Positions 4,499 through 30,540 of a stretch of DNA of 64,000 nt are shown here, piece by piece. The translations under genes and the position numbers were made by a program. The notes below the pieces were generated by a model. It searched no databases, had not been told where the DNA came from, and was given only the letters and a program-made list of their open reading frames with translations. Every line of letters starts with the position of its first letter. The first letter of the stretch is position 1. Location of the stretch: positions 26,441 to 90,440 of the forward strand of contig JACRPM010000010.1 in the NCBI GenBank assembly GCA_016223205.1. The letters are read 5' to 3'. Source of the DNA: Candidatus Saganbacteria bacterium (GTDB lineage: Bacteria > Margulisbacteria > WOR-1 > XYC2-FULL-46-14 > WPAF01).

Positions 4499-4575
4499 TT
4501 ATTACAAACAGATTAACTATTGGCTATTTCAGGGATAACCTATGAAAAATCCCGAAGGTGATAAATCAGTAAGAT

Positions 4576-4632
4576 TCCCTCTCCACAAAGTGGAGAGGGA
4601 TGTCCCCCGGCTTGCCGGGGGACAGGGTGAGG
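4576..4632. repeat. Family-1 composite palindromic element (tccctctccaCAAAGtggagaggga + cccccggcTTGccggggg + GGGTGAGG), inverted orientation
   Basis: Lies just upstream of the likely mutS start, inside the N-terminal extension of track ORF 4542. Confidence 0.6.
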
Positions 4633-4640
4633 TGACCCCC

Positions 4641-6866: not shown

Positions 6867-9800
6867 AAAAATCGGTTTGATAATATTGTGCCTGATCCTC
6901 CTGGGCACGGTCGCCCAGGCCGCCGACATCTATGTTGACGCGGTGAACGGCGACAACACCCGCACCACCGCCGAAGCCCAGAACCCCGCCACTCCCTGGA
7001 AGTGCATTACTGTGGCGGCCACCGGAGCGGCGGTGGGAGACACGGTGCATGTGGCGCCGGGTTATTATCTAACGGCCACCGGCGAAGCCTTCCCCATAAC
7101 CATCACCGGACGATATTTTATTTCGACCACCACCGGCTTGGCCACGATCGATTCGGGCACCAAGATTGCTGATGCCATCCATCTGGGAGCCGGGGCTACC
7201 CTGGATGGCTTTACCGTTTTAAATGCCGCACCCTCAAATTATTATTACGACATATACGTTCCCGCTGCCAATGCTCATATCCGGAATTGCACTTTAAAGC
7301 AGAACAGTACTGCCGCACAAAACAGGGTGATCTGGGTGGATGCCGGAGGAGACCGGGTAAGTATTGAAGGGAATTCCCTCACTACGAATACCTCCAATAC
7401 TTCTGCTGTGGTTACCTTTACCAGCGGAGCGGATAATCCTATCATCCGCAATAATATCATCTATGGGCCGGGAAGCCAGACCACCGGCATTGATTTTGGC
7501 ACCACCGTCGCGCCTACGGTCGAAGGCAATACCATAACGGTGGGATATTCCGGCATCGTTCAAACCGGGACCAGTACCAACCAAAATATTCTAAATAACA
7601 AGGTCATTGCGGTCGGGACCAACAATAATTATGGATTCTATGTCGGCGGAACTGCGGCGACCTCCATTACCGGCACGATCTCCGGCAATGAATTTAGGAA
7701 CTGGAACAATTCGGCCGGATCTTCCGGTATCAGGATCGAAAATACCAACGCTAATTATACTATCTCTAAAAATACCCTAGTCAAGAATACGAATGGGGTG
7801 AGAGTCGGCGCCGGCACCGCGACCGTCCGTGACAACATCATCTCCGCTGGTCCGCGAGACGGCACTTATCTTTCGGGCAGCACTGGGATCTACCAATCGG
7901 GGGGAACAATAACTTCCACTTACAACAATCTTTTCAACAACATTACGACTTATTACGGAACAGTTGGCAGTCAATCCAATGACAATACTTCCAACCCCAG
8001 GTTCGTAAATCCGGACGGCAATGATTATCGACTATTCTCCGATTCTCCCTGCAAAAATACGGCGAGCGACGGCGGCAATCGGGGGGCATATGCCGCGACC
8101 GATACCACCTCCGGCATCACCACCGAATCTTATGTGGATGATGGCGGAAGCGACGTAACGGGGGATGGCACATTGGGCAATCCCTGGAGAACGATCACCA
8201 AGGGATTGGGCTCGACCGAGGGCACGGTCTATGTGCGGGCAGGGACCTATACTGCCGCCAAGGGCGAAACCTTTCCTTTGGCGATCGGCAGCGGCCAGAA
8301 ACTCATCAATTATTTAACGGAGGCGGCCACCATCGATTCCTCAACCACCGCCATCAATACTGTTAATCTGGCCAATAACGCCACCCTCGAAGGGATGACG
8401 GTGAACAATTCCTCCAATCAATCCGCCGTATATTTGGTCGGCCCCGACTCACAGTTGATAAACAGCACAATTTATCAGGCCGGATCGGGCGGTTCGGGCG
8501 CCGCGGTATATTACGCGTCCGATGCCGATCGCTGCCTGCTGGAGGGGAATACCATTACCGGCGGTTCCAATTCCGTCGCCGCCCTATATTTGTTGACCGG
8601 GGTGGACAATCCGATCGTCCGCAATAACACTATTGTCGAGCAAAAAACCTCCAGCGCCTATGCGATCTATTTTGGCGGGACCAGCAGTTATCCCACCATC
8701 GAAGGCAATACCATTACAACCGGATATAACGGTATCATCCAAGTCGGGATCTGCACGAATCAAAATATATTAAACAATAAGATCATCGGGACGGGAAGCA
8801 ATATTAATGCCGGGATATATTTTCAGACCAATTCCACCGGAACGGTGGCCAGCAATGAAGTTAGGGGCTGGAGTGGGACGAGCGGCGCCGGGATCTATGT
8901 GAGCGGCTCCACCGCCAATTTAACCCTTAACAAGAACACCCTGGTCAAGAACACCTATGGGGTGCAGGTCACCAATGGGACGGTGAACATCCAAAACTGC
9001 ATTATTTCCGCGGCGCCGAGGGGCGGCACATATCTTTCGGCCAGTATCGGGATATATCGGACGGGAGGAACGGTAACCTCCACTTATAATGATCTTTTCA
9101 ATAACGTTGTTAATTATTCCGGGACAGTAGGAAGCCAATCGAACGACATCACCACCAATCCAAGGTTTGTAAATCCGGACGGCAATGATTATCAGCTATT
9201 TTCCGATTCCCCCTGTAAAAATACCGCGAGCGACGGCGGCAACCGGGGGGCCTATGCCGCGACCGGCGTTACCTCCGGCATTACGACCGAATCTTATGTG
9301 GATGACGGGGGCAGTGATGTTACCGGGGATGGGACATTGGGCAACCCCTGGAAAACGGTCACCAAGGGCTTGGGCTCGACGGAAGGCACGGTCTATGTAA
9401 GGGCCGGGACCTACAATACGGCCAACGGCAACACCCTGCCCGTTTCCCTGGCGGCGGGGCAGACCTTAAAAGGATATGCTTCGGAGATAGCCACCGTCGA
9501 AGGGAACGGCAGCAACCATGTGGTCCTGATCGGCTCCAATGCGACGATCGATAATATTTACCTCAAATTGACCGGGAATTATTACGGCGTATATGCCGGC
9601 GCCTCAAATGTAAATATCACCCGCAGCAAGATCATCGGCAACAGCCAGGGAAGCGGGATCTATTTTGACGGTGCTTTGACCGGCGTAACGCCGGGGGGCA
9701 ATATCACCACCTGTGAGGTCGGCGCAGTCGATTACGGCATTAATCTCTACGGCGCCACCTCCTGCGGAAATATTACCATCGAGGGGAACACCATCCGCGA

Positions 9801-12800
9801 TTATGACATTTGGGGAATTTATATTTACTGGGGACAAAGCGGCGCGAGTAATTTGGTCGATATCAAGAGGAATATCCTCAACAACTGCAACAACGCCTCG
9901 GGGACTTCTTACGGCGGCATCTACGCCTGGCTCCATTACACCGGGACCGTCAATATCATAAACAATACCATTGTTAAAAATTCTTTGGGAATCTATGCCT
10001 ATCGCTATTCATCCACCTTAAACATGAACATAAGGAATAACATCATCAGCGACACGCCGCGGCCGGACGGCGGGCCCCGTAACGGCAGTTATGGCCTGTA
10101 TAAAGATCAAGCGCTCTCTTTCATCTCTTCTTACAATAATGTTTGGAATCAGAGAACCAACTTCTATGGGGTGAGTGCGGGCACGGGCGATATTTCCGCC
10201 TATCCGCGATTTGTGGATCCCTGGAACAATAATTTCGACCTATATTCGGATTCGCCTTGCATCGGGACGGGATCGGGAGGTGCAAATATCGGGGCTTATG
10301 AAGGGGCGGGGGCGGCTAACTCGCCTTACCGGACCACCTCTTATGTCAACAACACCACCGGAGTCGACGCGGTGACCTCCGGAGAATCGGTCTCCAATCC
10401 CTATAAGACCGTTACCTTTGCCAATAAATATACGCTTGGCACGATAAATGTGGCGGCCAGCTCCAACAAGTACAATTCCACCAACAGCGAAACTTTTCCC
10501 ATAGATCTGGGCGCGGGCGGAGGAAAGCGGCTTTCCGGCGCCGACAGCGGCTCGGTCACCCTCGAGGGCTACGGCACGGATACTCATTTAGTTCCGGGGT
10601 CTTCCCTGGTTTATGGTTTAGGGGCCTTTACCAGCACGACCATTGAGGGTATCACTCTGCAGGGTATGGGGAACAATACGGGAGTTTATTTTTACGGGTC
10701 TAATCCAATTATCCAAAATTCGATCATCAAGGGGCCGCTCGCGGGAACCGGTTCTTCCGGCAAAGGCGTATATTTTGACGGCACTAATGGGGCATCAACC
10801 GGAGGCACGGTATCCACCTGCGAAATTACCAGTCTGGACTACGGGATTTATTTCACTGGAAGCACAACCTGCGGCAATATCACGATCGAAGGGAATGATA
10901 TCCACGACAATTATCAATGGGGCATCTATCATTATTTTTGGGCGCCGACCTCCAACGCCAATAATTTTATCGATATAAAACGGAACTTGATACGGAACTG
11001 CCTTAATACTTCCACCTCTTACGGCGGCATCTACGCCTGGACCTATTTTGTGACCTTGAACGTCAACCGCAACACGATCGTAAAAAATCCTATCGGGATC
11101 TATGCTTACCGATACGACAGCTATCTTACTCTGATCGCCAAGAACAATATTGTCGCATCGGAGATCGGCGGCTTTTCGGTAACGGGATCCAAAGGGATCT
11201 TGCGGGAGGGGGGGACCCTGACCAATACTTATAACGACGTATATTCGAACGACACCAATTGGTCGGGAGTGGCTTCCGGGGAAGGGAGCATTTCTGCCGA
11301 CGCCCTTTTCGTCAATGCCACCAACAACGATTTCCATCTCCAGCAGGGCTCCCCAGCCATCGATTCCGGCACACCGGCCGGCACCGACATGGGGGCGTAT
11401 GATTATAGTTCAACTACTCCCACCGTTACCCTGGGAAGCCCCAACGGCGGGGAGACCTGGGGTGCGGGCGCCTGGCACAACATTACCTGGGAGACCACCA
11501 ATACCCCTGACTCCATCAATCTCTATTATATTACCAGCGAGGCCACCGGATATCAGACCATTGCGACCGGTATTTCGGATAACGGCTCTTATCCTTGGCT
11601 GGTGCCGAACCGCGCGACCTCCACTGCCAAGGTAAGCGTCGAGGCGGTCAAAGCGGCAGAGACCGCTCGGGATGAATCGGCCGCGTACTTCACCATCACC
11701 GCGGCGACCAATTATTATGTGGATGCGACGAACGGGAATAATGCTTACAGCGGTATCACTTCCGAGGTCTCGGGAACCAACGGACCCTGGAAAACCCTAA
11801 CTTATGCTTCCACCCAAGCCGCGGCCTCGTCCACCACCCATGTAGCGGCGGGGACCTATAATGCGGCTCTGGGGGAAAGCTTCCCCATCGCCATTGCCAA
11901 CCTTAATTTTATCTCCTCGGCTTCGCCCACTACTTTAGCGACCATCGATGCCGGATCCAGCAACTGTATCACCCTGGGAGCGGCCGGTTATTTGGCGGGT
12001 TTCGATCTTAAATCGACTACTACCGATAAGGTGATCTATGTGACCGGAGCTAGCGCTTATATCGTCAGCAATAGGATGGCAACTTCGTATTCTATAACCA
12101 GCAATTACGATATTGATGTGGCCGATGCCGGCGATAATATCTTGATCCAGGGCAATACCATAGATTCGAAAAGAACCAACAATATCCGTTTGGAGACCGG
12201 CGCCGATAATCCGATCGTCAAGGACAACACTTTGACCACCGCCCAAAGTTACCAAACCGGCATCTATGTGAACTGGGTTACCACCCGGGTCACCGTAGAG
12301 GGGAATACCATTGTCGCGGACCAGGGCATATATCTGGGCAACTCTTGCAGCAATATTGATATTCGCACCAATGTGATCTCACCTTACAGCGCCGATTCCA
12401 GCGCTTATAAGGGAATGTTTTTGAGGGGGACCGGTACGGTGGCCAGTAATGAGGTGCGCGGGTATAAAAATTACGACACCTCCAATACCGCCGCCATATA
12501 TATCTATGACGGCACCATCACGGTCAGAAATAACACCCTGGTAAACAATGTAGTGGGGGTGGGCAACAGCTACGGCACTGCTACCATCAAAAACAATATT
12601 ATTTCCGCCGCTCCCAAGTTAAATTCCATTTATACCGATTACGGGGGCGGATTAGTAAACAGTGTGGGGATATGGGGGAGGGCCGGATACACCACCAACG
12701 CCAGTTATAATAACGTTTTCAATAATTACGCCAATTATTCGGGAAGCAGTATCACCCGATCGAACGAGCTCAATACTTGTCCGAGATTCGTCAATCCCGA

Positions 12801-15800
12801 CACGAATGATTTTCGGCTCTACTATGATTCTCCCAGCCGGGCAACGGCCGACGACGGCGGCAACCGGGGCAGGTATAGCGCTATCGGGACCAGCTCCGGA
12901 ATAACGGCCGAGTCCTATGTTTCGACCGCCGGCAATGATTCAACGGGTGACGGCAGTTTGTCTAATCCCTGGAAGACGGTGACCAAGGCGGTTTCTTCGA
13001 CCGAGGGAACGGTTTATGTGCGGGCCGGTAATTTCACCGCCAACGAGACCTTCCCCCTGGTCCTGACCGGCGGCCAAAAGGCGACCCGTTATCTTACCGA
13101 GTCGGCTTCGATCGATGCAACCGGGGCGGGCGCCAAGCATACTTTTATAACCGGATCGGCCGCCACCATAGAGTCGCTCACCCTGACCGCGAACAACACC
13201 AATGCCAGTTATTTCTCGATCTATTCCCTGGGCAATACCCACATCAAGAACAATACGCTTAACGCGGCGGTGAGCGGCGTATATCTCCGCGCAAATTACT
13301 GCACGGTCGAAGGCAACGCCATAACCATGAGCGGCTCCAGCGGTTATGGGGTAACCGTTCATGACAGCGGCGATTATTCGCTTATCCAAAACAACAGCAT
13401 AACCGCGAATGCCAGCGACGGCCGGGGGATCAGATTGGAAAATTATGCGGATAACATTACCGTAAGCGGGAATACCGTTGAAGCCCGGGCCTTTGGGATG
13501 GAGGTGGCCTCTTACAATAATAATTATAATATTACCAACAATATCTTGAGGGGGGCCGGGGTGGCGAGCTCTTACGGAATATATGCCAGTTACGTTTATA
13601 CCGGAAGCATTTCCTCGAATGAAGTGTCGAATTTTTACTACGGGATCCAGGCCGACTGTAATTCCGGCACCAGCACGATCTGGAACAATACCATCGTTAA
13701 TTTCACCACCGGCATTTACTCCTCGAACGGCGCCGCCAAGGTCATTAAAAACAATATCGTGAGCTCGTTGCCTACCTTCCCCTCGCTCCCGACCAGCGGG
13801 ACCAAAGGGATAGATCACATCGGGGGGACTACCACCCTAAAGAATAATGACATCTGGAACAATGAAACCAACTACAGCAACACCTCCGCCGGGACGGGCG
13901 ATATATCTCAAAATCCCAGATTTGTAAGCGCGGCGAGCAGCGATTTTCGCCTTTACAGCGATTCTCCCTGCGCCGCCGGCGGCGAAGGCGGGACCTATAT
14001 CGGGCGTTTCCCGGCGCTGGGAACTACTTCCGGCATAACCACGGAATCTTATGTGAGCGTGAGCGGAAATGATACGACCGGGAGCGGGACCCTAACCAGT
14101 CCCTGGAGGACCGTCACTAAAGGCTTGGGTTCAACGGAGGGGACGGTTTATGTAAGAGCGGGAACTTACACCGCGGGCGAGACCTTCCCCTTGGTCTTAC
14201 CTGCCGGAGAGCAGCTTAAAGGATATTTAACCGAAGCGGCGACCATCGATTGCACCGGGATTTCCGGAAAGAACACGGTGAACCTGGGAAGCAATACCAC
14301 CCTCGAAGGCCTGACGATCATCAACGCAGAAGGATCCGGCGCTTACCACACGATATATGCAGCTTCCTCCGGATCCCATATCAAGAACAATAAGATATAT
14401 CAAAATGGAGCGGCTTCGGGATCCTACGCCCTGTATCTAACGGCCGCCGCCGATCAATGCAGTATCGAAGGGAATACCATTCAGACCGGGAGCTCCAACG
14501 ATATAACGGTCTATCTGAGCAGTGGAGCGAATGATCCCATCATTAGGAACAACAACCTCACCGGAACAAAGTCCTCAAATTATGTCCTTTATTTCGCCGG
14601 CACCAGCAGCTCGCCGATCATTCAGAGCAACACCATAACCGGAACCTATTTCGGCATTTATCAGGGAGGAGCCCTAACCAATCAAGATCTAAGCAGCAAC
14701 AAGATCATCGCGACCGGATCCAATCATGTTTACGGAATATATATGGGATCGAATTCAACCGGCATCGTTTCCACCAATGAAGTGCGGGGCTGGAACGCCT
14801 ATTCTTATTCCTACGGCATCTGGGTGGGCGGCTTTAGCTCCAACCTGACCTTTAACAAGAATACGATCGTCAAATGCCAGACCGCTCTGGCTACCGGCGG
14901 CACCGCGAATATAACCAACAATATCATAGCGGGGGAGATCGGCGGTTTTTCTGGCTCCAATGTCAAGGGGATCGATAATGACAGCAGCGGCACGGTAACC
15001 TCGACTTACAACGACATTTATGCCAACGATATCACTTACGAAGGAACGGTGAGCAATAAAACCGGAGACCTGCAACAAAATCCTTTATTCGTCGACGCTG
15101 CCAATAACGATTACCATCTAACTTCGACTTCCCCCGCCATCGACGCCGGCGACCCGGCATCGCCGCACGATCCCGATGGTACGCGGGCGGACATGGGAGA
15201 ATACTATTTTAACCAGACCAATGACGCGCCCTCGGTTACCCTGCTCACTCCCAGCGGCGGCCAGAGCTTGACCGGCGGGGCCAGCTACAATATTACCTGG
15301 GCCGCCACCCAGCCGGCTTCGGGAGTGGATCATGTCGACATTTATTACTCCACCAACAGCGGATCGACCTATCCCAACCTGATCGTAGCCGGGACCTCCA
15401 ATGACGGCACTCATCCCTGGACCGTTCCCACCATCAATTCCACCACCGATAGGGTAAAAGTAATAGCGGTCTCGGGGGTAGGAGTTCTTGGCACCGGTGA
15501 AAGCAGTTCGGATTTTTCGATCACCACCGATTCCCAGGGTCCCACAGTCGAGGTTACTTCTCCGATCGGTGGGGAGTTGTGGAAGGGAGGGTCAACCCAC
15601 AATATCACCTTTACCGCGACCGATGAAGCCGGCCTTAAGGCCAATTCCCTTTATGCCTGGTATTCGACCAACGGAGGATCCACTTACCCTAATATCATAA
15701 CTAGTGAAGCCATCATTACTTCACCCTTCGTGTGGAATATCCCAGCCACGATCAATTCCCAGACGGTGCGGGTGCGTTTGAATATTTGGGATGCCTACAA

Positions 15801-18800
15801 CAATATCGGCACCGGGGAGAGTTCGGCAAGTTTTACTATCGATTCCACCCCTCCCACCGTTACCGTCCTGTCCCCGACGGGAGGGGATAAGTGGCAGGGT
15901 GGGACCAGCCACGACCTTACCTGGACCGCCACCGACAATTTTACACTGGAAGCTAATCCCATAACTCTCCAGTACTCGATTGATGCCGGAAGCAGCCGCA
16001 CCGACATTGCCACCGGGGAGGCAAATGACGGGAGCTATTCCTGGACAACGCTTTCCACCAACACCGATGAAGCGCGGATCAAGGTTTTGGCGCAGGATGT
16101 GTGCGGCAATATCGGCTCCGCCGAAAGCGCCAATTTCGTCATCGATTCCACGGCTCCAACGGCTCCGACCCTTTTAGCCCCGGCCAACGGATCAGCCACC
16201 GCCGAATCGCGGCCTCAATTAAGCTGGAATGCGGCAGTGGATTCCATCTCGGGGATCTCGAGTTACGAAGTGACCATCGATACCAACGTAGTAACCATCG
16301 ATGCCACCACCAGCTACACCACGCCGGACGCGCTTTCAGCCGCGGCGCACAGCTGGAAGGTGAAGGCCAAGAATGGCGTCGGTCTTTGGGGAGATTATTC
16401 GGAAACCTGGACCTTTACTACGGGTGTCGGCCCCAGTGCGGCGGGCATTGCGCTCAAAGATCGGGTCTATGGCAGTACCCAGTACTCCAACAGCTTGACC
16501 ATCTCGCTCGAAGTCCACGATGCGACCGGCTCGCCGACCCAAAGGCGAACTGCGCAGGATTCGGCATTTAGTGTCAATGACACCGGCTGGCTGACCTATG
16601 CCACCACCTCCGAATATACCTTTACCGCGGGGGAAGGCAGTCGCACGGCTTATTTTAAGATGCGCGACGCGTTCCAGAATGAAAGCGGCGCCTACAACGC
16701 CTCGATCGTAATCGATACCGTGCCGCCTTCACAGGTAACCCTGCTCACCCCGGCCAACAACAGTTATACCAACGACACCACACCGACATTCACTTGGAAT
16801 GCGGCCACGGACGCGACGAGCGGCGTGGCCAGCTATGAGGTGGTGATCGACACCACCCAGATCGCAACGGTCGGCGCGGTCACCACTTACACCACGCCCG
16901 ACGCCGAATCACAAGGACTGCACAACTGGAAGGCGCGCGCCAAGGACAACGCTCAAAATTGGGGGGAATATTCAACCACCTGGAATTTGACCGTTGAAAC
17001 CACCAATCCAACGGTAACTTTGGGCAAACCCAACGGCGGGGAAACCCTGGCTTCGGGCGCAAGCTACAGCATCACCTGGGAAGCGGCGGACAATTTCGGG
17101 TTAAAGACCGATCCCGTCACGCTCAACCTTTCAACCAACGGCGGAAGTTCTTGGTCCACCATCCAGGCCGGGATCTCCTACGTCACCGGCGAGGGGACCT
17201 ATTCCTGGACGGTGCCGTCGGTATCTTCCACCACCTGTCTGGTAAGCATCGAGGTGGAGGATAACGCCGGAAACAAGGGATACGACATCAGCAATTCAAC
17301 CTTTACCATCTCCAATACGCAGCCGACCGCTACGGTCACTTATCCCAACGGCGGGGAATACTTAAAAGGCGCGACCGCTTATAATATTACCTGGATCGCC
17401 ACAGGCGAGCCGGCTCCGGTCGCCATTAATCTGCGTTATTCGACCAACAGCGGATCGAGCTGGACGCTGATCGCCAGCAACGAAAGCAATGACGGAACTT
17501 ATGCCTGGACCACGCCTGCTATCGATTCTATAACCGATCGGGTCAGCGTCGAGGCGGTGGATGGTTTGGGGAGGGTGGGGACCGGGCAAAGCGCCGCGAA
17601 TTTTGCGATCGACAGTACTACTCCGGAAGTTGCGGTGGTCGCTCCAAGTGGCGGAGAACGGCTGGCGGGAGGGTCTTCCTATAATATCCAGTGGACCGCC
17701 ACAGACACAGTGGGCCTGCCGGCTAATCCCATCACGTTGAGATATTCAACCGATAGTGGAAGCAGTTGGACGCCCATCGCCGCTGCCCAACCCAACACGT
17801 CCCCCTATGCCTGGACGGTGCCGACGGTCAACTCCACCACCGTACGGGTAAGCGTCGAAGCGACCGATCGGGTCGGCTTTACCGGAACTGCCCAGAGCGC
17901 GTCGGATTTTATAATCGACAGCACCACTCCTACAGTACTGACGGTATCGCCCACCGACGGGGCGACCTCGGTTTCGATCAGCGCCACAGTGATCATCGTC
18001 TTCAGCAAGGAAATGAGCCGGGAAGCCACTCAAAACGCATTCTCGCTTTCCGCTTCGCCTGCGGTCTCGGGCGGTTTCTCCTGGAGCGGCGATGGTAAAA
18101 CCCTAACCTTCACTCCAGCTGCAGCTCTTGAATATAATACTCTTTATACGGTCGCGGTGGCCGCCGCGGCAACGGACCTGGCGGGCAACCATCTTACGGC
18201 TTTCTCCTCGAGCTTCACCACTGCGCCAAGAGGGGATTCCGAAGCGCCCCATATCATAATCCAAAGAGTAGATGCCCAAGGTGTGGCCAATACCCTGAAG
18301 GACGGGGATTATATTCCTAAACAGCCCAGGTTCAAAGGGGTCATAACCGATAATCTGGGAGTGAGCCGCGCCACCATCAAGTTCTACCTGGACGATGTGG
18401 AAACGGCGGCAACGATAACCGAGGTCTCTGTCACCAGATATGAAGTGGCTTACACGGTAACCTCCAATCTCGAAGGGGAGACAGTGAGGACTCATAGCGT
18501 TAAACTGGTCGCCAGCGATACTGCCGGTAATTCTACGACCCAGGAGATCACGGGACTTAAAGTTTCCTACGAATCAGGGAAAGTGATCGGCCCCGTGCTT
18601 ACTTATCCCACCACCTATAATCCGTTGACCGGCCAGCCGGCCCGCCTGGCTTACAATCTCACCGCCGACCAAGATGTGATGCTTTATATGCTGGATATCT
18701 CCGGACAAGTTGTCTGGACGGGCAAATATCCTTCGGGCGCCGAGGGCGGCAAGGCCGGCTATAACGAAATTCTCTTCTACGGCCGCTCCGAGATCTCCGG

Positions 18801-18885
18801 AACATTCCTCGGCAACGGCATCTATATCTACAAACTGGTGGCAGGCAATCGGGTCATCGGGACGGGAAGGTTGGCGATATTCTAA
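6859..18885 (+). CDS. Giant secreted surface protein (4008 aa): signal peptide, at least 5 right-handed parallel beta-helix modules, about 14 Ig/Fn3-like domains, T9SS-type (Por_Secre_tail / FlgD-Ig-like) C-terminal sorting domain
   Basis: Signal peptide MAKKIGLIILCLILLGTVAQA. Apparent TTG start overlapping the mutS stop. Repeated module ...NPRFVNPDGNDY(R/Q)LFSDSPCKNTASDGGNRGAYAAT..SGITTESYV..GDGTLGNPWKT(V/I)TKGLGSTEGTVYVRAGTY. PbH1-like NN(I/T)I repeats. Repeated PNGGE.W..G....ITW Ig-like domains. C-terminal ...YPTTYNPLTG...MLYMLDISGQVVWTGKY...GIYIYKLVAGNRVIGTGRLAIF. Confidence 0.85.
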   Translation: MAKKIGLIILCLILLGTVAQAADIYVDAVNGDNTRTTAEAQNPATPWKCITVAATGAAVGDTVHVAPGYYLTATGEAFPITITGRYFISTTTGLATIDSGTKIADAIHLGAGATLDGFTVLNAAPSNYYYDIYVPAANAHIRNCTLKQNSTAAQNRVIWVDAGGDRVSIEGNSLTTNTSNTSAVVTFTSGADNPIIRNNIIYGPGSQTTGIDFGTTVAPTVEGNTITVGYSGIVQTGTSTNQNILNNKVIAVGTNNNYGFYVGGTAATSITGTISGNEFRNWNNSAGSSGIRIENTNANYTISKNTLVKNTNGVRVGAGTATVRDNIISAGPRDGTYLSGSTGIYQSGGTITSTYNNLFNNITTYYGTVGSQSNDNTSNPRFVNPDGNDYRLFSDSPCKNTASDGGNRGAYAATDTTSGITTESYVDDGGSDVTGDGTLGNPWRTITKGLGSTEGTVYVRAGTYTAAKGETFPLAIGSGQKLINYLTEAATIDSSTTAINTVNLANNATLEGMTVNNSSNQSAVYLVGPDSQLINSTIYQAGSGGSGAAVYYASDADRCLLEGNTITGGSNSVAALYLLTGVDNPIVRNNTIVEQKTSSAYAIYFGGTSSYPTIEGNTITTGYNGIIQVGICTNQNILNNKIIGTGSNINAGIYFQTNSTGTVASNEVRGWSGTSGAGIYVSGSTANLTLNKNTLVKNTYGVQVTNGTVNIQNCIISAAPRGGTYLSASIGIYRTGGTVTSTYNDLFNNVVNYSGTVGSQSNDITTNPRFVNPDGNDYQLFSDSPCKNTASDGGNRGAYAATGVTSGITTESYVDDGGSDVTGDGTLGNPWKTVTKGLGSTEGTVYVRAGTYNTANGNTLPVSLAAGQTLKGYASEIATVEGNGSNHVVLIGSNATIDNIYLKLTGNYYGVYAGASNVNITRSKIIGNSQGSGIYFDGALTGVTPGGNITTCEVGAVDYGINLYGATSCGNITIEGNTIRDYDIWGIYIYWGQSGASNLVDIKRNILNNCNNASGTSYGGIYAWLHYTGTVNIINNTIVKNSLGIYAYRYSSTLNMNIRNNIISDTPRPDGGPRNGSYGLYKDQALSFISSYNNVWNQRTNFYGVSAGTGDISAYPRFVDPWNNNFDLYSDSPCIGTGSGGANIGAYEGAGAANSPYRTTSYVNNTTGVDAVTSGESVSNPYKTVTFANKYTLGTINVAASSNKYNSTNSETFPIDLGAGGGKRLSGADSGSVTLEGYGTDTHLVPGSSLVYGLGAFTSTTIEGITLQGMGNNTGVYFYGSNPIIQNSIIKGPLAGTGSSGKGVYFDGTNGASTGGTVSTCEITSLDYGIYFTGSTTCGNITIEGNDIHDNYQWGIYHYFWAPTSNANNFIDIKRNLIRNCLNTSTSYGGIYAWTYFVTLNVNRNTIVKNPIGIYAYRYDSYLTLIAKNNIVASEIGGFSVTGSKGILREGGTLTNTYNDVYSNDTNWSGVASGEGSISADALFVNATNNDFHLQQGSPAIDSGTPAGTDMGAYDYSSTTPTVTLGSPNGGETWGAGAWHNITWETTNTPDSINLYYITSEATGYQTIATGISDNGSYPWLVPNRATSTAKVSVEAVKAAETARDESAAYFTITAATNYYVDATNGNNAYSGITSEVSGTNGPWKTLTYASTQAAASSTTHVAAGTYNAALGESFPIAIANLNFISSASPTTLATIDAGSSNCITLGAAGYLAGFDLKSTTTDKVIYVTGASAYIVSNRMATSYSITSNYDIDVADAGDNILIQGNTIDSKRTNNIRLETGADNPIVKDNTLTTAQSYQTGIYVNWVTTRVTVEGNTIVADQGIYLGNSCSNIDIRTNVISPYSADSSAYKGMFLRGTGTVASNEVRGYKNYDTSNTAAIYIYDGTITVRNNTLVNNVVGVGNSYGTATIKNNIISAAPKLNSIYTDYGGGLVNSVGIWGRAGYTTNASYNNVFNNYANYSGSSITRSNELNTCPRFVNPDTNDFRLYYDSPSRATADDGGNRGRYSAIGTSSGITAESYVSTAGNDSTGDGSLSNPWKTVTKAVSSTEGTVYVRAGNFTANETFPLVLTGGQKATRYLTESASIDATGAGAKHTFITGSAATIESLTLTANNTNASYFSIYSLGNTHIKNNTLNAAVSGVYLRANYCTVEGNAITMSGSSGYGVTVHDSGDYSLIQNNSITANASDGRGIRLENYADNITVSGNTVEARAFGMEVASYNNNYNITNNILRGAGVASSYGIYASYVYTGSISSNEVSNFYYGIQADCNSGTSTIWNNTIVNFTTGIYSSNGAAKVIKNNIVSSLPTFPSLPTSGTKGIDHIGGTTTLKNNDIWNNETNYSNTSAGTGDISQNPRFVSAASSDFRLYSDSPCAAGGEGGTYIGRFPALGTTSGITTESYVSVSGNDTTGSGTLTSPWRTVTKGLGSTEGTVYVRAGTYTAGETFPLVLPAGEQLKGYLTEAATIDCTGISGKNTVNLGSNTTLEGLTIINAEGSGAYHTIYAASSGSHIKNNKIYQNGAASGSYALYLTAAADQCSIEGNTIQTGSSNDITVYLSSGANDPIIRNNNLTGTKSSNYVLYFAGTSSSPIIQSNTITGTYFGIYQGGALTNQDLSSNKIIATGSNHVYGIYMGSNSTGIVSTNEVRGWNAYSYSYGIWVGGFSSNLTFNKNTIVKCQTALATGGTANITNNIIAGEIGGFSGSNVKGIDNDSSGTVTSTYNDIYANDITYEGTVSNKTGDLQQNPLFVDAANNDYHLTSTSPAIDAGDPASPHDPDGTRADMGEYYFNQTNDAPSVTLLTPSGGQSLTGGASYNITWAATQPASGVDHVDIYYSTNSGSTYPNLIVAGTSNDGTHPWTVPTINSTTDRVKVIAVSGVGVLGTGESSSDFSITTDSQGPTVEVTSPIGGELWKGGSTHNITFTATDEAGLKANSLYAWYSTNGGSTYPNIITSEAIITSPFVWNIPATINSQTVRVRLNIWDAYNNIGTGESSASFTIDSTPPTVTVLSPTGGDKWQGGTSHDLTWTATDNFTLEANPITLQYSIDAGSSRTDIATGEANDGSYSWTTLSTNTDEARIKVLAQDVCGNIGSAESANFVIDSTAPTAPTLLAPANGSATAESRPQLSWNAAVDSISGISSYEVTIDTNVVTIDATTSYTTPDALSAAAHSWKVKAKNGVGLWGDYSETWTFTTGVGPSAAGIALKDRVYGSTQYSNSLTISLEVHDATGSPTQRRTAQDSAFSVNDTGWLTYATTSEYTFTAGEGSRTAYFKMRDAFQNESGAYNASIVIDTVPPSQVTLLTPANNSYTNDTTPTFTWNAATDATSGVASYEVVIDTTQIATVGAVTTYTTPDAESQGLHNWKARAKDNAQNWGEYSTTWNLTVETTNPTVTLGKPNGGETLASGASYSITWEAADNFGLKTDPVTLNLSTNGGSSWSTIQAGISYVTGEGTYSWTVPSVSSTTCLVSIEVEDNAGNKGYDISNSTFTISNTQPTATVTYPNGGEYLKGATAYNITWIATGEPAPVAINLRYSTNSGSSWTLIASNESNDGTYAWTTPAIDSITDRVSVEAVDGLGRVGTGQSAANFAIDSTTPEVAVVAPSGGERLAGGSSYNIQWTATDTVGLPANPITLRYSTDSGSSWTPIAAAQPNTSPYAWTVPTVNSTTVRVSVEATDRVGFTGTAQSASDFIIDSTTPTVLTVSPTDGATSVSISATVIIVFSKEMSREATQNAFSLSASPAVSGGFSWSGDGKTLTFTPAAALEYNTLYTVAVAAAATDLAGNHLTAFSSSFTTAPRGDSEAPHIIIQRVDAQGVANTLKDGDYIPKQPRFKGVITDNLGVSRATIKFYLDDVETAATITEVSVTRYEVAYTVTSNLEGETVRTHSVKLVASDTAGNSTTQEITGLKVSYESGKVIGPVLTYPTTYNPLTGQPARLAYNLTADQDVMLYMLDISGQVVWTGKYPSGAEGGKAGYNEILFYGRSEISGTFLGNGIYIYKLVAGNRVIGTGRLAIF

Positions 18886-19013
18886 TTAGGAATTTAATAA
18901 TTGGGATTTCCCTCGTCATTGCGGTTTCATCATTCGGATTTTCCGCGCAAGCGGACACGGTCAAAGTTGCCACAGACCCGACACGTATTTCTGTAGGCGC
19001 CAGGATCCTAGGG

Positions 19014-20654
19014 ATGGGCAAGGCCTATTTGGGCCGGGCGGACGATATCGGCTCGCTGTTCATTAATCCCGCGGGGTTAGCGAACATCAAGGAGTGGCAA
19101 GCTACCTCCATGTCCGGCAAATTCATCAACGAGTTCAATTATCTTAATCTGGGATTTGCTTATCCCACCCGTTTCGGCACTTTCGGGTTTGGGTTCACTG
19201 GTTCCGACATCTCTTTTTCCGGTCCGGCGGCGGTCTTGGAATCGATCGATGGGGTAAGGGTGGTGCCTTCCACCACCGAGACCGTTTCTTATGGGTACAA
19301 CAACAGCGTGATGCTTTTGGGATACGGCGGGAAGGCGCGCGAAGATCTAGCGGTCGGCTTGACCTTAAAGCTTTTCTCTCCCATCCTTACCGGCCCGCAG
19401 ATCACGGGGGGTACGGCGCGGGGATTCGACGCCGACCTGGGTTTTTTATATGAGCCGCGTCCGGCAGTGCGGATGGGCGTTACGGTGCAGAACTTCGTCC
19501 CTTATTCTTTGGGCGGCAAGATACGCTGGGGGAACGGACAGGAAGAATCCTTTCCCTCGACCCTAAAGACCGGATTAAGCTTGATCTTAATGGGAGAAAA
19601 AGGGATCAGGAAGTTCGGTCAACAAGAACTCAAATTTAACTTTGACGGGGATTTTACCCCTCTGCGCCCCACTATCCCCAGCTTGTACCATCTGGGCCTG
19701 GAGTGGTCGCCGGTTTTGATCCTTGATCTGCGATTGGGGATCGACCAGGATATTATCGGGAAGGGCGGGGGACTGCTCGATGTCTCGAACAACTTTACCA
19801 CCGGAGTGGGAATTTACCTTGATGGCTTCCGTTTCGATTATGCCTTCCACCAGTATTATGGGGCGGTAGAGAACGATACCCATTATTTCTCCGTAAGCTA
19901 TGGGATCTTCAGGGAGCCCCCTCCTAAAGTCATAAAAGAACACCTGCATGTGATCGCGCCCGCCGATCGCGCCGTCTTTTACACCGATAAGGTCCCGGTC
20001 CTGGCGCAGGCGCTCGATCCGGAGATCAAACGGATCACCGTTGCCGGCCGAACCTGGAACGCGACCGCTGAAGAGATCGGGCTGGGGGTCGGAAAAAATC
20101 TTATATCGGTCGAGGGCTGGTCCGCTGCCGGTCGAAAAGTTGAGACCATCTACCTGCGGGAGCTGCGCCTGCTTTCTTTCAAAGATGTGGATGAGATCTA
20201 TTGGGCGCGACCCCCCATAGAACGGCTGGCGACATTGGGAATTTTGCGCGGTTATCCGGACGGCGACTTTAAGCCGCAGGAAAGGGTGCGGCGGCAGGAT
20301 CTTGCCGCTCTTTTGGCCCGGCTGATAAGCCCGGAAGCCCAAACCGAAGTTGCCGATCCCAAAAGATATGTCACCCGGGCCGAAGCGGTGACCATGATCT
20401 ATAATTTCGGCGGGGTCGCTCCCGTGCCGGTGCTCGAAAGTCCTTTTCCCGATATTCCCGGAAGATATTGGGCCGCAGGGGCAATATATGCGGCCAAATC
20501 GGCGGGGATCTTGAAATATCTGGAGGGTGGGAACTTTCTTCCGGGTAAGGAGCTCACCCGCGCCGAGATGGCCGAGCTGCTTTCCCGCGTCCCGTCGATA
20601 AAAGCGAGGATCGACTACCTTCTGGACTTTGAGCGGGGTTTTGCGGTAAAATAG
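19014..20654 (+). CDS. FadL/OmpP1-family (PorV-like) outer-membrane beta-barrel fused to two C-terminal SLH domains
   Basis: N-terminal motif VGARILGMGKAYLGRADDIGSLFINPAGLA is the FadL/TodX signature (G.G.A...DDA....NPA). C-terminal SLH repeats FKDVDEIYWARPPIERLATLGILRGYPDGDFKPQERVRRQDLAALLARL and FPDIPGRYWAAGAIYAAKSAGILKYLEGGNFLPGKELTRAEMAELLSRV. The reading frame is open upstream to about 18885 and encodes a signal peptide (IIGISLVIAVSSFGFSAQA) with no canonical start codon, so the true 5' end is uncertain. Confidence 0.6.
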   Translation: MGKAYLGRADDIGSLFINPAGLANIKEWQATSMSGKFINEFNYLNLGFAYPTRFGTFGFGFTGSDISFSGPAAVLESIDGVRVVPSTTETVSYGYNNSVMLLGYGGKAREDLAVGLTLKLFSPILTGPQITGGTARGFDADLGFLYEPRPAVRMGVTVQNFVPYSLGGKIRWGNGQEESFPSTLKTGLSLILMGEKGIRKFGQQELKFNFDGDFTPLRPTIPSLYHLGLEWSPVLILDLRLGIDQDIIGKGGGLLDVSNNFTTGVGIYLDGFRFDYAFHQYYGAVENDTHYFSVSYGIFREPPPKVIKEHLHVIAPADRAVFYTDKVPVLAQALDPEIKRITVAGRTWNATAEEIGLGVGKNLISVEGWSAAGRKVETIYLRELRLLSFKDVDEIYWARPPIERLATLGILRGYPDGDFKPQERVRRQDLAALLARLISPEAQTEVADPKRYVTRAEAVTMIYNFGGVAPVPVLESPFPDIPGRYWAAGAIYAAKSAGILKYLEGGNFLPGKELTRAEMAELLSRVPSIKARIDYLLDFERGFAVK

Positions 20655-20661
20655 AGGCCTC

Positions 20662-21999
20662 ATGTCCGAAGAACGCATCCCACCGCAAAACCTGGCAGCC
20701 GAGCAATCCGTCATCGGCTCACTGCTTATCGACAAGAACGCCATTGTCAAAGCCATAGAGATACTGCGCCCCGACAGCTTTTACCGCGACGCCCACCGTT
20801 TTATCTTTGAAGCGATCTTGGAGCTTTTTGACCGCGGCGAGCCGGTGGACCTGGTGACCGTGACCGAGGTTTTGCGCAAGGGCGGCAAATTGGACGCGGT
20901 GGGCGGATCGGTATATGTGGCGGACCTTATTAATTCCGTTCCCACCGCCGCCAACCTCGAGCATTACGCCAAGATCGTCGAAGAAAAAGCCACTCTCCGC
21001 CGCCTCATCGATGCCGGCACCCGGATAGTGGGCAGCAGCTTTGAAGCCGTCGAAAATGTGGACCAGATACTGGACCGCGCGGAAAAAAGCATCTTTGAGA
21101 TCGCGCTCAAGCGTTCCCGCGAGGGTTTCCACCGCTTAGACGAAGTGCTGAAATCGGTCCTAGACAAGATCGACCGGCTCTACGGCAAAAAAGAAAATAT
21201 CACCGGCATCCCCACGGGATTCGCCGACCTCGACAATCTGACCGCCGGTTTCCAGAACTCGGACCTCATTATCCTGGCGGCCCGCCCGTCGGTCGGCAAA
21301 ACCGCCCTGGCGCTCAACATCGCGCAAAACGCCGCCCTGCGCCACAAGATCCCGGTAGCTATCTTTTCGCTCGAGATGAGCAAGGACCAGCTGGCCCAAC
21401 GGATGCTGTGCTCCGAAGCCGAGATCGACGCCCTGCGGCTTAAGACCGCGAGCTTGCCCGATGCCGGCTGGAAGCGGCTCACCCGGGCGCTTTCCAAGCT
21501 TTCGGAAGCCCCCATCTTTGTCGACGATACCGCGGCCATCACCGTGACCGAGATCCGCGCCAAGTGCCGCCGGCTTAAGCTCGAGAAAGGGCTGGGGCTG
21601 GTGGTGATCGATTATCTCCAGCTCATGCAGGGGAGGGGCCGGATCGAGAACCGCGTGCAGGAGATCTCGGAGATCACCCGGTCGCTCAAGACCTTGGCCC
21701 GGGAGCTCGATATCCCGGTGGTCTCGCTCTCCCAGCTGTCGCGCGCGGTGATGCAAAGGCAGGACCGCACCCCCATGCTCTCGGACCTGCGTGAATCGGG
21801 CGAGATCGAGCAGACCGCGGATGTGGTGATCTTTATCCACCGCGACGATTATTACAATCCGCAATCCGAGAAGGGCAACCTCGCGGAGATCATCATCTCC
21901 AAACAGCGCAACGGCCCCATCGGCACGGTGGAGCTGGTCTTCCGCAAGGATATCGCCAAGTTCGTCAACAAGGAAAGCAGATATGAGGAGGTTGGCTAG
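20662..21999 (+). CDS. dnaB: Replicative DNA helicase DnaB
   Basis: 445 aa. N-terminal PPQNLAAEQSVIGSLLID. Walker A ARPSVGKTALALN. RecA-like C-terminal domain. Confidence 0.95.
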   Translation: MSEERIPPQNLAAEQSVIGSLLIDKNAIVKAIEILRPDSFYRDAHRFIFEAILELFDRGEPVDLVTVTEVLRKGGKLDAVGGSVYVADLINSVPTAANLEHYAKIVEEKATLRRLIDAGTRIVGSSFEAVENVDQILDRAEKSIFEIALKRSREGFHRLDEVLKSVLDKIDRLYGKKENITGIPTGFADLDNLTAGFQNSDLIILAARPSVGKTALALNIAQNAALRHKIPVAIFSLEMSKDQLAQRMLCSEAEIDALRLKTASLPDAGWKRLTRALSKLSEAPIFVDDTAAITVTEIRAKCRRLKLEKGLGLVVIDYLQLMQGRGRIENRVQEISEITRSLKTLARELDIPVVSLSQLSRAVMQRQDRTPMLSDLRESGEIEQTADVVIFIHRDDYYNPQSEKGNLAEIIISKQRNGPIGTVELVFRKDIAKFVNKESRYEEVG

Positions 22000-23479
22000 C
22001 TGTCTTCTGGCTGCGGCGCTGGTGCTCCTGGCGGGCGCCGCCTGGTCGGTTGAAAAAGACCTCAAGATCAATGCCCATTCTGTCGATTATGACAATGTTC
22101 ACAATCTCATCGAAGCCACCGGATCGGTGGAGGCCCTCTATAAGGATTTTTCCGCCTCCGGCGAACATCTGATCTACCACACCGATACCCGGGTCCTGAC
22201 GATGGACCGGGGTTTTAAATTCAAGTACGAGGAGGTCGATCTTAAGGGTGGGCAATTGACCTACGAGGTCCAATCCCGCCGGGGCGAGGCCCAAAAGGTC
22301 AGCGCACTCTACGACCGGCTGACCCTTACCGGCCAAAAGGTGAACTTCGATCCCGAAAAACTCGAACTGCATGATGCCGGTTTCAATAGCTGCGGCCTCG
22401 CGGGCCCGCATTACAATTTTACCGCCTCCGACATCCAGCTTTATCCCAAATCCGGTTGGTTGGTCGCCTATTGGGGATTGTTCTACCTGCAGGGCATTCC
22501 CACTATCCCGGTGCCGGTCTATATCTACGATGTGGAGGCGCAAAGAAGGGGGGAGGGCAATGTCCTGCCTTATCCGGTCTTGGGCAGTAACGCCGAGGAC
22601 GGCAATTTTATATCCGAAAGCTTCGCCTGGACGCGGAGCCGCGAACTTTTCGGCTCGGTGACGCTCGGCTATCTCGAAAAGAAGGGATTGAGCCTGGGAG
22701 TGGCGGCCAACTATCTCAATGACCAAAACAACTCCGGCAAGGTCCGGCTGGCGGGCAATCCCAAAGACGGCATTTGGGGCGGCTGGACCCATCAATATGC
22801 TTTCGGCGACCTGATCATCCCCGGGGAAAAATTCGCCTTTCGCCTGTTTAACCTGCCCTCTTTCCATCGTTACGACCTGGTATCCGACCTTACTTATCGG
22901 GAACGCATCAATTACGAGCGGGTGAGCCAGCTGCCCAACCTCAAGCTCACCGTCCGCCGGATCGACTGGGGAGAAATAAAAGGGGTGGGGGAAGCGCAGG
23001 CGGGCTATATTACCGAAGAATCGACTGGCGTATCCTTGGCCCGATATTCTCTTGCCGCGGACCTGGTGCGGCCGTATCCTTTGGGGGGGTGGGGATATTT
23101 GACCCCGGGAGTGAACCTCAACGGGACCTATTACGGCAACCACACCAATTGGAGAAAGATCCAGGGAAGGTTGGTCTGGGATTCGACCCTGGGGGAAAAC
23201 TTTACCACCAGTTTGGGTTATTACCATTATTTCCTTAACCAGGGGACCAGCCCCTTCAGGTACGAGCTGTACCGATTCACCTCGTCCGACCAGGTGACCG
23301 CCGGTTTCATCTATTCGTGGCAGTTGAGCAAACTGGGAGTGAGCGCGGCCTATAACCTCCCTTCCGGCGCCCCGCAAGATATCGATTATCTCTTTAAAGT
23401 CGGCTTCCATTGTTATAGTATAGGAGCGACCTATCGCGCCATGCGCAACGAGTTCTATATGATATTCAACCTAATATAA
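21983..23479 (+). CDS. OstA/LptD-like outer-membrane protein (short LPS-assembly LptD homologue, tentative)
   Basis: Signal peptide MRRLASCLLAAALVLLAGAAWS. N-terminal beta-jellyroll-like region with LptA/OstA-style alternating pattern. C-terminal beta-rich region of about 350 aa. A 17-nt overlap with dnaB. Confidence 0.4.
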   Translation: MRRLASCLLAAALVLLAGAAWSVEKDLKINAHSVDYDNVHNLIEATGSVEALYKDFSASGEHLIYHTDTRVLTMDRGFKFKYEEVDLKGGQLTYEVQSRRGEAQKVSALYDRLTLTGQKVNFDPEKLELHDAGFNSCGLAGPHYNFTASDIQLYPKSGWLVAYWGLFYLQGIPTIPVPVYIYDVEAQRRGEGNVLPYPVLGSNAEDGNFISESFAWTRSRELFGSVTLGYLEKKGLSLGVAANYLNDQNNSGKVRLAGNPKDGIWGGWTHQYAFGDLIIPGEKFAFRLFNLPSFHRYDLVSDLTYRERINYERVSQLPNLKLTVRRIDWGEIKGVGEAQAGYITEESTGVSLARYSLAADLVRPYPLGGWGYLTPGVNLNGTYYGNHTNWRKIQGRLVWDSTLGENFTTSLGYYHYFLNQGTSPFRYELYRFTSSDQVTAGFIYSWQLSKLGVSAAYNLPSGAPQDIDYLFKVGFHCYSIGATYRAMRNEFYMIFNLI

Positions 23480-29724: not shown

Positions 29725-30540
29725 TTATATCATAATAGCGAAATATTTATCGATCGCGCCGACAAAGTAATCTTTCTTGAAATATTCCGCCTCTTCTTTT
29801 TTTTCAAGAAAGAATTGAACGTCGCTCAAGAGACGGGGGAAATTGATCCGGTCGATCCTGCCAAGAAGAAGTTCTTTGGTTTGGGGGCCGTCCAGGTCAA
29901 AATTCTTTCCTTCCGTCTGCGCCGCCGCGTTCGACAATAGCTTGTAATTGATGGGGGTCTTGCGGGTCAAAAACCAGAGCAGATCGTAATAATCCCGGCC
30001 TTTATCATATTTTCTAAACAAGACGGCGTGCAATTTGGAGGCGAACAGGGAATCCGGCTTATAGCAGTTCACTTTGAACAGGAAATTCTTGTTTACCAGC
30101 ACGACTTCGGTTTGATAGCCCCGCGGAGGATTCGAATCTATCTCCAGTTTAATGAACAGTTTTTCGCTCTTTAGTTGAGATAGGCCAAGCTCGTATAACA
30201 GCCCCTTGAAGCGAATGAATTCGCTTAAAACGGTTTTATCCTTGGCTTTCGCCTCCTCCACGGAATAACCGGTTAATTCCAGCTCTTTTTTAGCCGTTTT
30301 GAGAAGCGCGCTAAAATCAAATCCTTTTTTATTAATCAGTGAGAAATCAAGGTCCTCTGAAAATCGCGGCATATCATAAAGAATTCTTAGGGCAGTTCCC
30401 CCGACAAAAGCGAAGTTCTTGAAATAGCCCTTCCTATCCAGGATCTGAAGGATCAGTTCCTGCAGATATTCCCTGGTGAAATTATATTTTTCTTCGTTCG
30501 ATCCCAGGCCTTCAAGTTTTTTCAGCAATATTTCTTTCAT
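29725..30540 (-). CDS. abiEii: AbiEii/AbiGii-family nucleotidyltransferase toxin (type IV toxin-antitoxin / abortive infection)
   Basis: DUF1814 hallmark FVGGTALRILYDMPRFSEDLDFSL. 271 aa. A 4-nt overlap with the upstream AbiEi gene. Confidence 0.75.
   Translation of the reverse strand: MKEILLKKLEGLGSNEEKYNFTREYLQELILQILDRKGYFKNFAFVGGTALRILYDMPRFSEDLDFSLINKKGFDFSALLKTAKKELELTGYSVEEAKAKDKTVLSEFIRFKGLLYELGLSQLKSEKLFIKLEIDSNPPRGYQTEVVLVNKNFLFKVNCYKPDSLFASKLHAVLFRKYDKGRDYYDLLWFLTRKTPINYKLLSNAAAQTEGKNFDLDGPQTKELLLGRIDRINFPRLLSDVQFFLEKKEEAEYFKKDYFVGAIDKYFAIMI

Follow-up and report, generated by a model that had tools for sequence, protein, structure and literature searches.

A 64,000-nucleotide stretch of the Candidatus Saganbacteria contig JACRPM010000010.1 (assembly GCA_016223205.1, positions 26,441 to 90,440; referred to below as the window) contains on its forward strand an open reading frame (ORF) of 546 amino acids with an ATG start (19014-20654), whose product has the same sequence as NCBI protein MBI5699913.1, 'S-layer homology domain-containing protein [Candidatus Saganbacteria bacterium]'. 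This ORF is part of a longer gene that most likely begins at 18879 and that is predicted to encode, in a single chain, a signal peptide, a plugged outer-membrane beta-barrel of the PorV/PorQ type, an immunoglobulin (Ig)-like spacer and a module of S-layer homology (SLH) repeats. The family to which it belongs is multi-copy, is almost confined to Margulisiibacteriota/Saganbacteria, and shows a strong, clade-specific gene linkage to secreted proteins with a C-terminal domain (CTD) resembling those of a type IX secretion system (T9SS). The linkage is the most informative feature of the gene, and it was missed by an earlier interpretation made from the letters of the window alone (the sequence-only reading). 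With moderate confidence, based on sequence, modelling and analogy, we suggest that the protein is a PorV-like anchor, tethered to the wall, to which its cognate CTD cargo would attach; it would correspond to the PorP-PorE module of Bacteroidota in one chain. The features of the gene and of its upstream neighbour are as follows.

6859-18885, +: presumed cognate cargo, a secreted protein of 4008 amino acids with signal peptide, Ig-like domains and right-handed beta-helix modules (DUF1565/NosD) in repeated copies
18586-18882, +: last ~100 amino acids of the giant protein (its CTD), forming a beta-sandwich related to T9SS type A sorting domains and FlgD_ig
18879-20654, +: proposed full gene, 591 amino acids plus stop (signal peptide, PorV-like barrel, Ig-like domain, SLH repeats)
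18879-18953, +: signal peptide (ILIRNLIIGISLVIAVSSFGFSAQA), proposed from the open frame, the homologues and the TTG start of a close relative
18954-19097, +: N-terminal plug (hatch), from the AlphaFold2 (AF2) model and conserved columns, with the FadL-superfamily motif GMGKAYLGRADDIGSLFINPAGL at 19011-19079
19098-19901, +: 14-stranded PorV/FadL-type outer-membrane beta-barrel
19944-20168, +: Ig-like beta-sandwich spacer of ~75 amino acids between barrel and SLH repeats (AF2 strands 331-405)
20175-20306, +: SLH repeat 1 (PF00395), with RRQD in the TRAE position (20289-20300)
20361-20414, +: remnant of SLH repeat 2, second helix only, with TRAE at 20373-20384 (family alignment, AF2 helix 475-486)
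20442-20573, +: SLH repeat 3 (PF00395, E=7e-12), with TRAE at 20556-20567

Gene model, domain architecture and family

The product of the ORF that starts at ATG 19014 lacks a signal peptide. Upstream of this codon the same frame stays open and encodes IRNLIIGISLVIAVSSFGFSAQA followed by DTVKVATDPTRISVGAR, i.e. IRNLIIGISLVIAVSSFGFSAQA followed by DTVKVATDPTRISVGARILG and then MGKAYLG. In the family alignment, every homologue has a signal peptide and, after it, the conserved segment TKVANDPTRISVGAR. No in-frame ATG, GTG or TTG was found before 19014. A relative with 87% identity uses a TTG start that overlaps the stop codon of its own giant upstream gene, and at the aligned position the window has an ATT (18879), with a second ATT at 18885. 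The Shine-Dalgarno-like element GGGAAGG, 9-10 nt upstream of the start, is identical in the window and in this relative. Because the homologues all carry a signal peptide, the frame is open and the TTG of the relative is aligned with the ATT, the upstream start is preferred. Judging from these comparisons, the gene most likely spans 18879-20654 and begins with a rare, non-canonical ATT at 18879 (or 18885), overlapping the last codons of the giant gene. The start at 19014, as adopted in the sequence-only reading, has to be abandoned, since the signal peptide is restored only by an upstream start. The deposited protein MBI5699913.1 is therefore N-terminally truncated, its start having been miscalled and its signal peptide lost, and the miscalled start is flagged here as a systematic error of annotation.

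An AF2 model was obtained from an alignment of 66 family members (residue numbers are those of the mature protein). The model, with a predicted local distance difference test score (pLDDT) of 92.3, consists of a plug (1-48), 14 long beta-strands (49-316), an Ig-like sandwich (331-405) and a helical SLH bundle (419-557). The top Foldseek matches are PorV chains in translocon complexes (8gl6_F, 6h3i_F). Consistent with this, the first ~300 residues of the annotated ORF match the NCBIfam PorV/PorQ model NF033709 with 65.4 bits (E=6.6e-18), and the restored N-terminus raises the score to 77.6 bits (E=1.2e-21), both below the curated cut-off of 90 bits. All 66 aligned members match this model at E<=1e-5 (best 1.3e-38), and some carry the NCBI name PorV/PorQ family. 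In the hidden Markov model (HMM) scans the barrel matched PorV/PorQ models only, and no PorP_SprF match was returned. The Pfam FadL/Toluene_X family (PF03349) gave 11.3 bits (E=0.12, residues 2-32 only), short of its gathering threshold of 29.7, although the FadL-superfamily fold, with hatch domain and NPA-type motif, is present. The final barrel strand, THYFSVSYGIF (19878-19910), resembles an internal beta-signal. On profile and model evidence the barrel belongs to the FadL superfamily, as a divergent representative of its PorV/PorQ branch. The earlier proposal of a barrel of about 300 residues preceding the SLH repeats is borne out; its label 'FadL/PorV-like' fits PorV far better than the FadL family proper.

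The spacer bears a weak likeness to Glucodextran_B (PF09136, E=0.003, under the cut-off), and a local HMM scan found the Ig-like domain in most family members. In FadL and PorV structures both chain ends lie on the periplasmic side. For this reason the Ig-like spacer and the SLH module are expected to be periplasmic.

The SLH assignment is secure: PF00395 matches two stretches with 86.3 bits (cut-off 20.8, E=1.3e-24). In the consensus of the 66-member alignment there are three tandem SLH repeats with a TRAE-like motif in each. A deletion of ~34 amino acids, common to the window copy and its 87% relative, has removed the first half of the second repeat. The two SLH domains counted in the sequence-only reading are thus the two intact repeats; the remnant between them was overlooked, and the ancestral number in the family is three. 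The three-repeat domain of Bacillus anthracis Sap aligns over its full length with a profile of the triple repeat (E=2e-21); SpaA could be aligned as well. By its sequence, the family SLH region is a self-contained, probably pseudo-trimeric module of the Sap/SpaA type found in Gram-positive S-layer proteins, unlike the single SLH domain plus coiled coil of OmpM.

The order of the domains had been described as reversed. The barrel does precede the SLH repeats here, but this layout has precedents. In OmpA, too, the barrel comes first and the wall-binding domain after it. In trimeric autotransporters of Negativicutes the barrel is likewise followed by a periplasmic SLH domain at the C-terminus (bioRxiv 10.64898/2026.01.22.700529).

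A search for the same architecture in public genomes, as proposed in the sequence-only reading, was productive. The protein search returned ~75 full-length clusters, 75 loci were collected in a scan of species-representative genomes, and ~80 clusters and ~90 family genes were counted overall. Where the title of a locus names a phylum, it is always Margulisiibacteriota, Saganbacteria or WOR-1, except for one labelled Omnitrophota; the rest are metagenome-assembled genomes (MAGs) listed as unclassified 'uncultured bacterium' or 'bacterium'. Copy number reaches 7 loci per MAG, and the complete 1.67-Mb genome of a WOR-1 member has 3. The dominant architecture, found in 53 genes by local HMM scan, is barrel-Ig-SLHx3, and variants are without the Ig domain, without SLH repeats, or with a duplicated Ig-SLH block. 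Among the longer variants (L015 8774-11653; L019, L054; P0056-P0062) are a 959-amino-acid ORF in which the Ig-SLHx3 block is doubled, forms of ~740 amino acids with four SLH matches, and forms of 840-924 amino acids with extra sequence. Public annotations describe family members merely as 'SLH domain-containing' or 'PorV/PorQ family'. Literature searches combining PorV with SLH returned only irrelevant papers, and those on Margulisbacteria and S-layers returned nothing about the PorV-SLH family.

Linkage to secreted proteins with a T9SS-like C-terminal domain

The last ~120 residues of the giant protein gave weak NCBIfam matches to the PorU C-terminal region (E=6.7e-7) and to Por_Secre_tail (E=0.0056). 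Starting from this C-terminus, an HMM iterated across every ORF of the window and of 79 loci (~1.2 Mb in total) collected 64 ORFs of 64 to 4008 amino acids, in every one of which the domain lies at the extreme C-terminus. Pfam recognised FlgD_ig in 33 of 61 homologous CTDs, Por_Secre_tail in 10 and CHU_C in 6, and their alignment displays YPNPFNP, GxYxY and KGKLxV motifs, which are typical of T9SS C-terminal domains. An AF2 model of the CTD of the giant protein (9-sequence input) is a seven-strand sandwich of medium confidence, with a pLDDT of 68.8 overall and ~80 in the sandwich. When the CTD profile was run against a set of 5.8 billion proteins only 7 short matches were returned, which is a limit of the word index of that search.

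The association of the two gene families was assessed against the 695 other genes of the same loci. A CTD gene lies immediately upstream on the same strand in 34 of 75 family genes (45%), compared with 10 of the 695 others (1.4%; odds ratio 57, p=1.6e-29, Fisher). When both sides are counted, the figures are 44 of 75 versus 37 of 695 (p=3.3e-29, Fisher). The linkage is also clade-specific. The clade of the window gene accompanies giant beta-helix proteins of 1023-4008 amino acids, and other barrel clades pair with BNR-propeller-type proteins or with a CTD protein of ~380 amino acids. The order of giant gene, then barrel gene, recurs in six further loci (L004, L012, L014, L015, L021, L054). In the window the two genes overlap; no terminator was found between them, and a promoter and terminator scan of the junction gave nothing beyond chance. 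Adjacency to a giant protein is not universal in the family, as a subgroup in a pheA/argS/mla context rules this out.

The giant gene itself has a TTG start and overlaps the end of mutS (4542-6866). Its product is built from several near-repeated modules in which DUF1565, beta-helix and 'PRFVNPDGNDY' segments recur. The genes mutS, giant gene, PorV-SLH gene, dnaB, an LptD-like gene, tmk and alaS form a co-directional string with overlapping or very short junctions. At some other loci (L068 818-9903; also L039, L042, L047 and L060) tandem arrays of alternating ~450- and ~400-amino-acid proteins without Pfam match, in up to 3 pairs, stand before the ~380-amino-acid CTD protein, which is followed by the PorV-SLH gene.

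The window contains two pairs of CTD cargo and barrel genes, at 6859-20654 and at 42191-46899. The second is composed of:

43642-46899, -: second cargo, 1085 amino acids, with five DUF7483 domains, Big_5 and a C-terminal Por_Secre_tail (PF18962, 27.4 bits, gathering threshold 27; TIGR04183, 28.3 bits, cut-off 23)
42191-43645, -: a second barrel of the PorV/PorQ family (120 bits against a cut-off of 90), with TPR repeats at its C-terminus, overlapping the cargo gene by 4 nt

Here, the Por_Secre_tail passes both curated cut-offs. On the minus strand (40722-46899) the cargo gene and the PorV-TPR gene are followed by a gene for an ATPase with TPR, zinc-ribbon and AAA_22 domains (ExeA-like). The cargo/PorV-TPR pair recurs in another Margulisiibacteriota contig (L080), where an ExeA-like ATPase, a response regulator, PilM/N and a secretin come after it; this context hints at a link to a type II or type IV-pilus-like apparatus. 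It is also found in a Zixibacteria genome, in which the PorV-TPR gene (P0145, L082) overlaps the end of a gene for a 1257-amino-acid FlgD_ig-tailed protein. In other candidate phyla, e.g., FCPU426, PorV/UPF0164-like barrels are fused to OmpA domains (PF00691; P0148, P0154 (L081), P0172). A PorV-like barrel with a periplasmic C-terminal module thus seems to be a general, undescribed theme, and the fused wall-binding domain appears to follow the divide between SLH in Terrabacteria and OmpA in other phyla.

A third PorV-like barrel of the window (53902-55182, -, 426 amino acids) has a split match to NF033709 (E=5e-13), no C-terminal SLH or TPR domain and no CTD neighbour. Downstream of it lies a gene for a TPR/metallo-beta-lactamase-fold protein (52494-53954).

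Candidate roles of the barrel and its wall-binding module

By analogy with PorV, which binds type A CTDs, and with the PorP/SprF-like barrels that hold CTD proteins of type B, the barrel described here would serve the neighbouring giant beta-helix protein as a surface receptor and anchor cognate to its CTD. In its predicted architecture the protein has a Sec signal peptide, then a plugged barrel of 14 strands from the PorV/PorQ branch and, on the periplasmic side, an Ig-like spacer and tandem SLH repeats of the Sap/SpaA type. The fused SLH module would bind the pyruvylated secondary cell-wall polymer (SCWP) on peptidoglycan, so that load on the 4008-amino-acid surface protein might pass through the barrel directly to the wall. 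This would be the equivalent of the chain of cargo, PorP and PorE (OmpA-like) in Bacteroidota, made as a single polypeptide with a wall-binding domain typical of Terrabacteria.

The closest precedent for this arrangement is PorP/SprF with PorE. In Bacteroidota, PorP-like 14-stranded barrels of the FadL family bind type B CTD cargo encoded beside them (PMC9143113), and the connection from PorP to peptidoglycan is made by PorE, which has TPR repeats and a domain like that of OmpA (Gorasia et al. 2022, PMC9143113). In both systems the cargo gene adjoins the gene for a 14-stranded FadL-family barrel, and there are several paralogous pairs per genome. Just as sprF follows sprB, the family barrel gene usually comes after that of its cargo; no T9SS core was identified here. 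A barrel that holds a CTD protein at the surface and is joined to peptidoglycan is the part for which we propose a counterpart in the present family. The two systems differ in that the SLH or TPR module is fused to the barrel, whereas Bacteroidota use a separate lipoprotein. Moreover, by HMM the target barrel is PorV/PorQ-like, and the CTDs are closer to type A/FlgD_ig than to type B.

With PorV itself (LptO; PDB 6H3I chain F, 8GL6 chain F) the barrel shares the 14-stranded, plugged FadL-type fold and the genetic association with CTD proteins of the Por_Secre_tail/FlgD_ig type. Yet the two are only 15-16% identical, the target scores under the curated family cut-off, and PorV lacks the Ig-like domain and SLH repeats found at the C-terminus of the target. 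PorV is one general shuttle, whereas the family is multi-copy with clade-specific neighbouring cargo, and its phylum, one of the Terrabacteria, has no reported T9SS.

Several observations weigh against a role as CTD anchor. The CTD of the giant protein scores under the curated NCBIfam cut-offs, Pfam gave no match to its last 161 or 125 amino acids, and a Foldseek search with its medium-confidence model led to Ig-like folds of a generic kind, without a T9SS CTD among the leading matches. Some 40% of the family genes lack a CTD neighbour, and ~8-13 loci of the window's own clade sit instead between pheA and argS/mlaEFD. In the window copy the second SLH repeat is damaged and the first has RRQD in place of TRAE. 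Lastly, SprA/Sov, PorU, PorZ and PorK-N were not seen among the ORFs of the window or the large flanking ORFs sampled, which are a small part of any genome. In the sampled DNA there is thus no T9SS core gene to account for export of the cargo.

Some of these points would suit a general structural tether, in which the barrel is a mere membrane anchor, the SLH module links membrane to wall without cargo, and adjacency to CTD genes reflects co-regulation of envelope genes. We regard this as unlikely, albeit the strongest of the alternatives. It would not predict the 57-fold enrichment of CTD neighbours or barrel clades that follow cargo classes, and the plug and the PorV-like features of the barrel are conserved, with no sign of degeneration. 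Other aspects of the family fit it well: the triple SLH module is Sap-like, the genes are multi-copy like OmpM in Negativicutes, one subgroup that lacks a CTD neighbour lies beside envelope genes of the mur/dcw and mla groups, and PorV-like barrels are fused to OmpA domains elsewhere. A further objection is that the window already has a gene for a canonical tether of this kind:

47183-48538, -: classical OmpM-type protein, 451 amino acids, with SLH domain and stalk at the N-terminus (residues 31-118; PF00395, E=3.7e-11 at residues 38-80)

Residues 31-118 of this protein align to the SLH domain and stalk of Veillonella OmpM (8bys, 8bym) and of Deinococcus SlpA (7zgx). The genome thus keeps the canonical tether; the OmpM-type gene is not part of the cargo/barrel module. 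Genes for a glycosyltransferase resembling monogalactosyldiacylglycerol (MGDG) synthase and for a sugar epimerase follow it (48447-50455).

The target and OmpM/Slp(SlpA)/SomA are alike in having an outer-membrane beta-barrel and a periplasmic SLH domain expected to bind modified peptidoglycan or pyruvylated SCWP, and they share a phylogenetic realm, the diderm Terrabacteria. CsaB was not found in the 64-kb window, but it is listed for WOR-1/Saganbacteria genomes (Witwinowski et al., Supplementary Data Sheet 1; bioRxiv 10.1101/2021.05.31.446380). OmpM has one N-terminal SLH domain, a coiled-coil stalk and a general-porin barrel, and forms a trimer; proteins of the present family begin with a PorV/FadL-type barrel, continue with an Ig-like spacer and end in three tandem SLH repeats of the Sap/SpaA type. 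The target therefore does not have the layout of OmpM/Slp/SomA (single N-terminal SLH, coiled-coil stalk, porin barrel), nor is it the main or only SLH-barrel protein of its genome. That it replaces OmpM is ruled out by the separate OmpM-type gene with N-terminal SLH in the same window. The possibility that Witwinowski et al. had counted this family as the OmpM of Saganbacteria can likewise be discarded. For WOR-1 RIFOXYB2_FULL_42_35 they list OGC24325.1 as OmpM and OGC24502.1 as CsaB (bioRxiv 10.1101/2021.05.31.446380), and the family member OGC23703.1 (= P0011) is found in their supplementary table only under 'SLH proteins'.

Like OmpA, the trimeric autotransporters of Negativicutes have the barrel first and the periplasmic wall-binding domain last, and for this domain a part in stabilising or positioning a large surface adhesin has been proposed. 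There, adhesin and barrel are one polypeptide with a 12-stranded trimeric YadA anchor and a single SLH domain per chain. In the target family cargo and barrel are separate gene products, which would be joined through the CTD.

An involvement of the barrel in export, either as a dedicated translocator or usher for its neighbour (in the style of two-partner secretion) or as a shuttle docking on another translocon, appears improbable. A plugged 14-stranded barrel, to judge from FadL and PorV structures, would be too narrow for a folded cargo of ~4000 amino acids, and a wall-fixed SLH module is hard to square with a mobile shuttle. Nor was a translocon identified in the sampled DNA. The one-to-one pairing of cargo and barrel with overlapping reading frames might still be taken to favour export, as might the clustering of the L080 PorV-TPR pair with an ExeA-like ATPase, PilM/N and a secretin, and PorV does shuttle from SprA in the T9SS (PMC9143113).

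Least probable is uptake of hydrophobic compounds through a FadL-type channel that is only incidentally wall-anchored: the NPAG motif in the N-terminal hatch and the weak PF03349 match are outweighed by the preference of the HMMs for PorV/PorQ by many orders of magnitude (E=1e-21 versus 0.12), by PorV as the best structural match, by neighbours that are secreted CTD proteins and not genes of fatty-acid or aromatic catabolism, and by up to 7 paralogues per small genome, which would be unusual for a FadL-type transporter. The target also differs from FadL/TodX in its C-terminal domains, taken to be periplasmic.

Remaining genes of the window and implications for the phylum

Downstream of the PorV-SLH gene, a 498-amino-acid exported protein without Pfam match (21983-23479, +) has a weak NCBIfam likeness to LptD (E=0.0014), and its synteny is kept in L004; it may be a short, divergent LptD-like protein. 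Between guaA and an IMPDH-family gene there is a pair of AbiEii toxin and AbiEi antitoxin genes (29725-31151, -; type IV toxin-antitoxin). A pseudopilin-like cluster (37555-40166, +; N_methyl motif, GspH-like, PilX_N) is convergent with the operon of the PorV-TPR barrel and ATPase. A tRNA scan of the window came back empty.

Margulisiibacteriota/Saganbacteria are a sister lineage of Cyanobacteria and lie outside the Fibrobacteres-Chlorobi-Bacteroidetes (FCB) group. Reviews confine the T9SS to Bacteroidota/FCB, and no papers joining type IX secretion and Margulisbacteria were found. The parts, and the logic of pairing a cargo with a barrel, are already known; what is new is that barrel and wall link are fused, the phylum in which they occur, and a pairing with cargo that extends across the family. 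PorV-SLH proteins represent a third architecture for SLH-based coupling of membrane and wall in diderm Terrabacteria, beside OmpM and SLH-bearing autotransporters, and a count of 'SLH plus barrel' proteins therefore lumps different things.

The findings suggest that the principle by which PorV/PorP barrels recognise CTDs is used outside the FCB superphylum, with the wall link fused into the barrel. A tentative generalisation, which is possible but to which we give less credence than to the anchor role of the window protein, is that Margulisiibacteriota/Saganbacteria as a whole use sorting and anchoring of the CTD/PorV type, in which each large surface protein has its own PorV-like barrel, fused to the wall via SLH (or linked to other partners via TPR). 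If this is true, CTD recognition by a FadL-type barrel would be older, more widespread and more modular than the T9SS of Bacteroidota, and the translocon with which it works might be a different one, or there might be none that is known so far. The proposed anchor raises the question of which translocon exports the cargoes, and it offers a testable model for how giant surface proteins may be held on the cells of this phylum.

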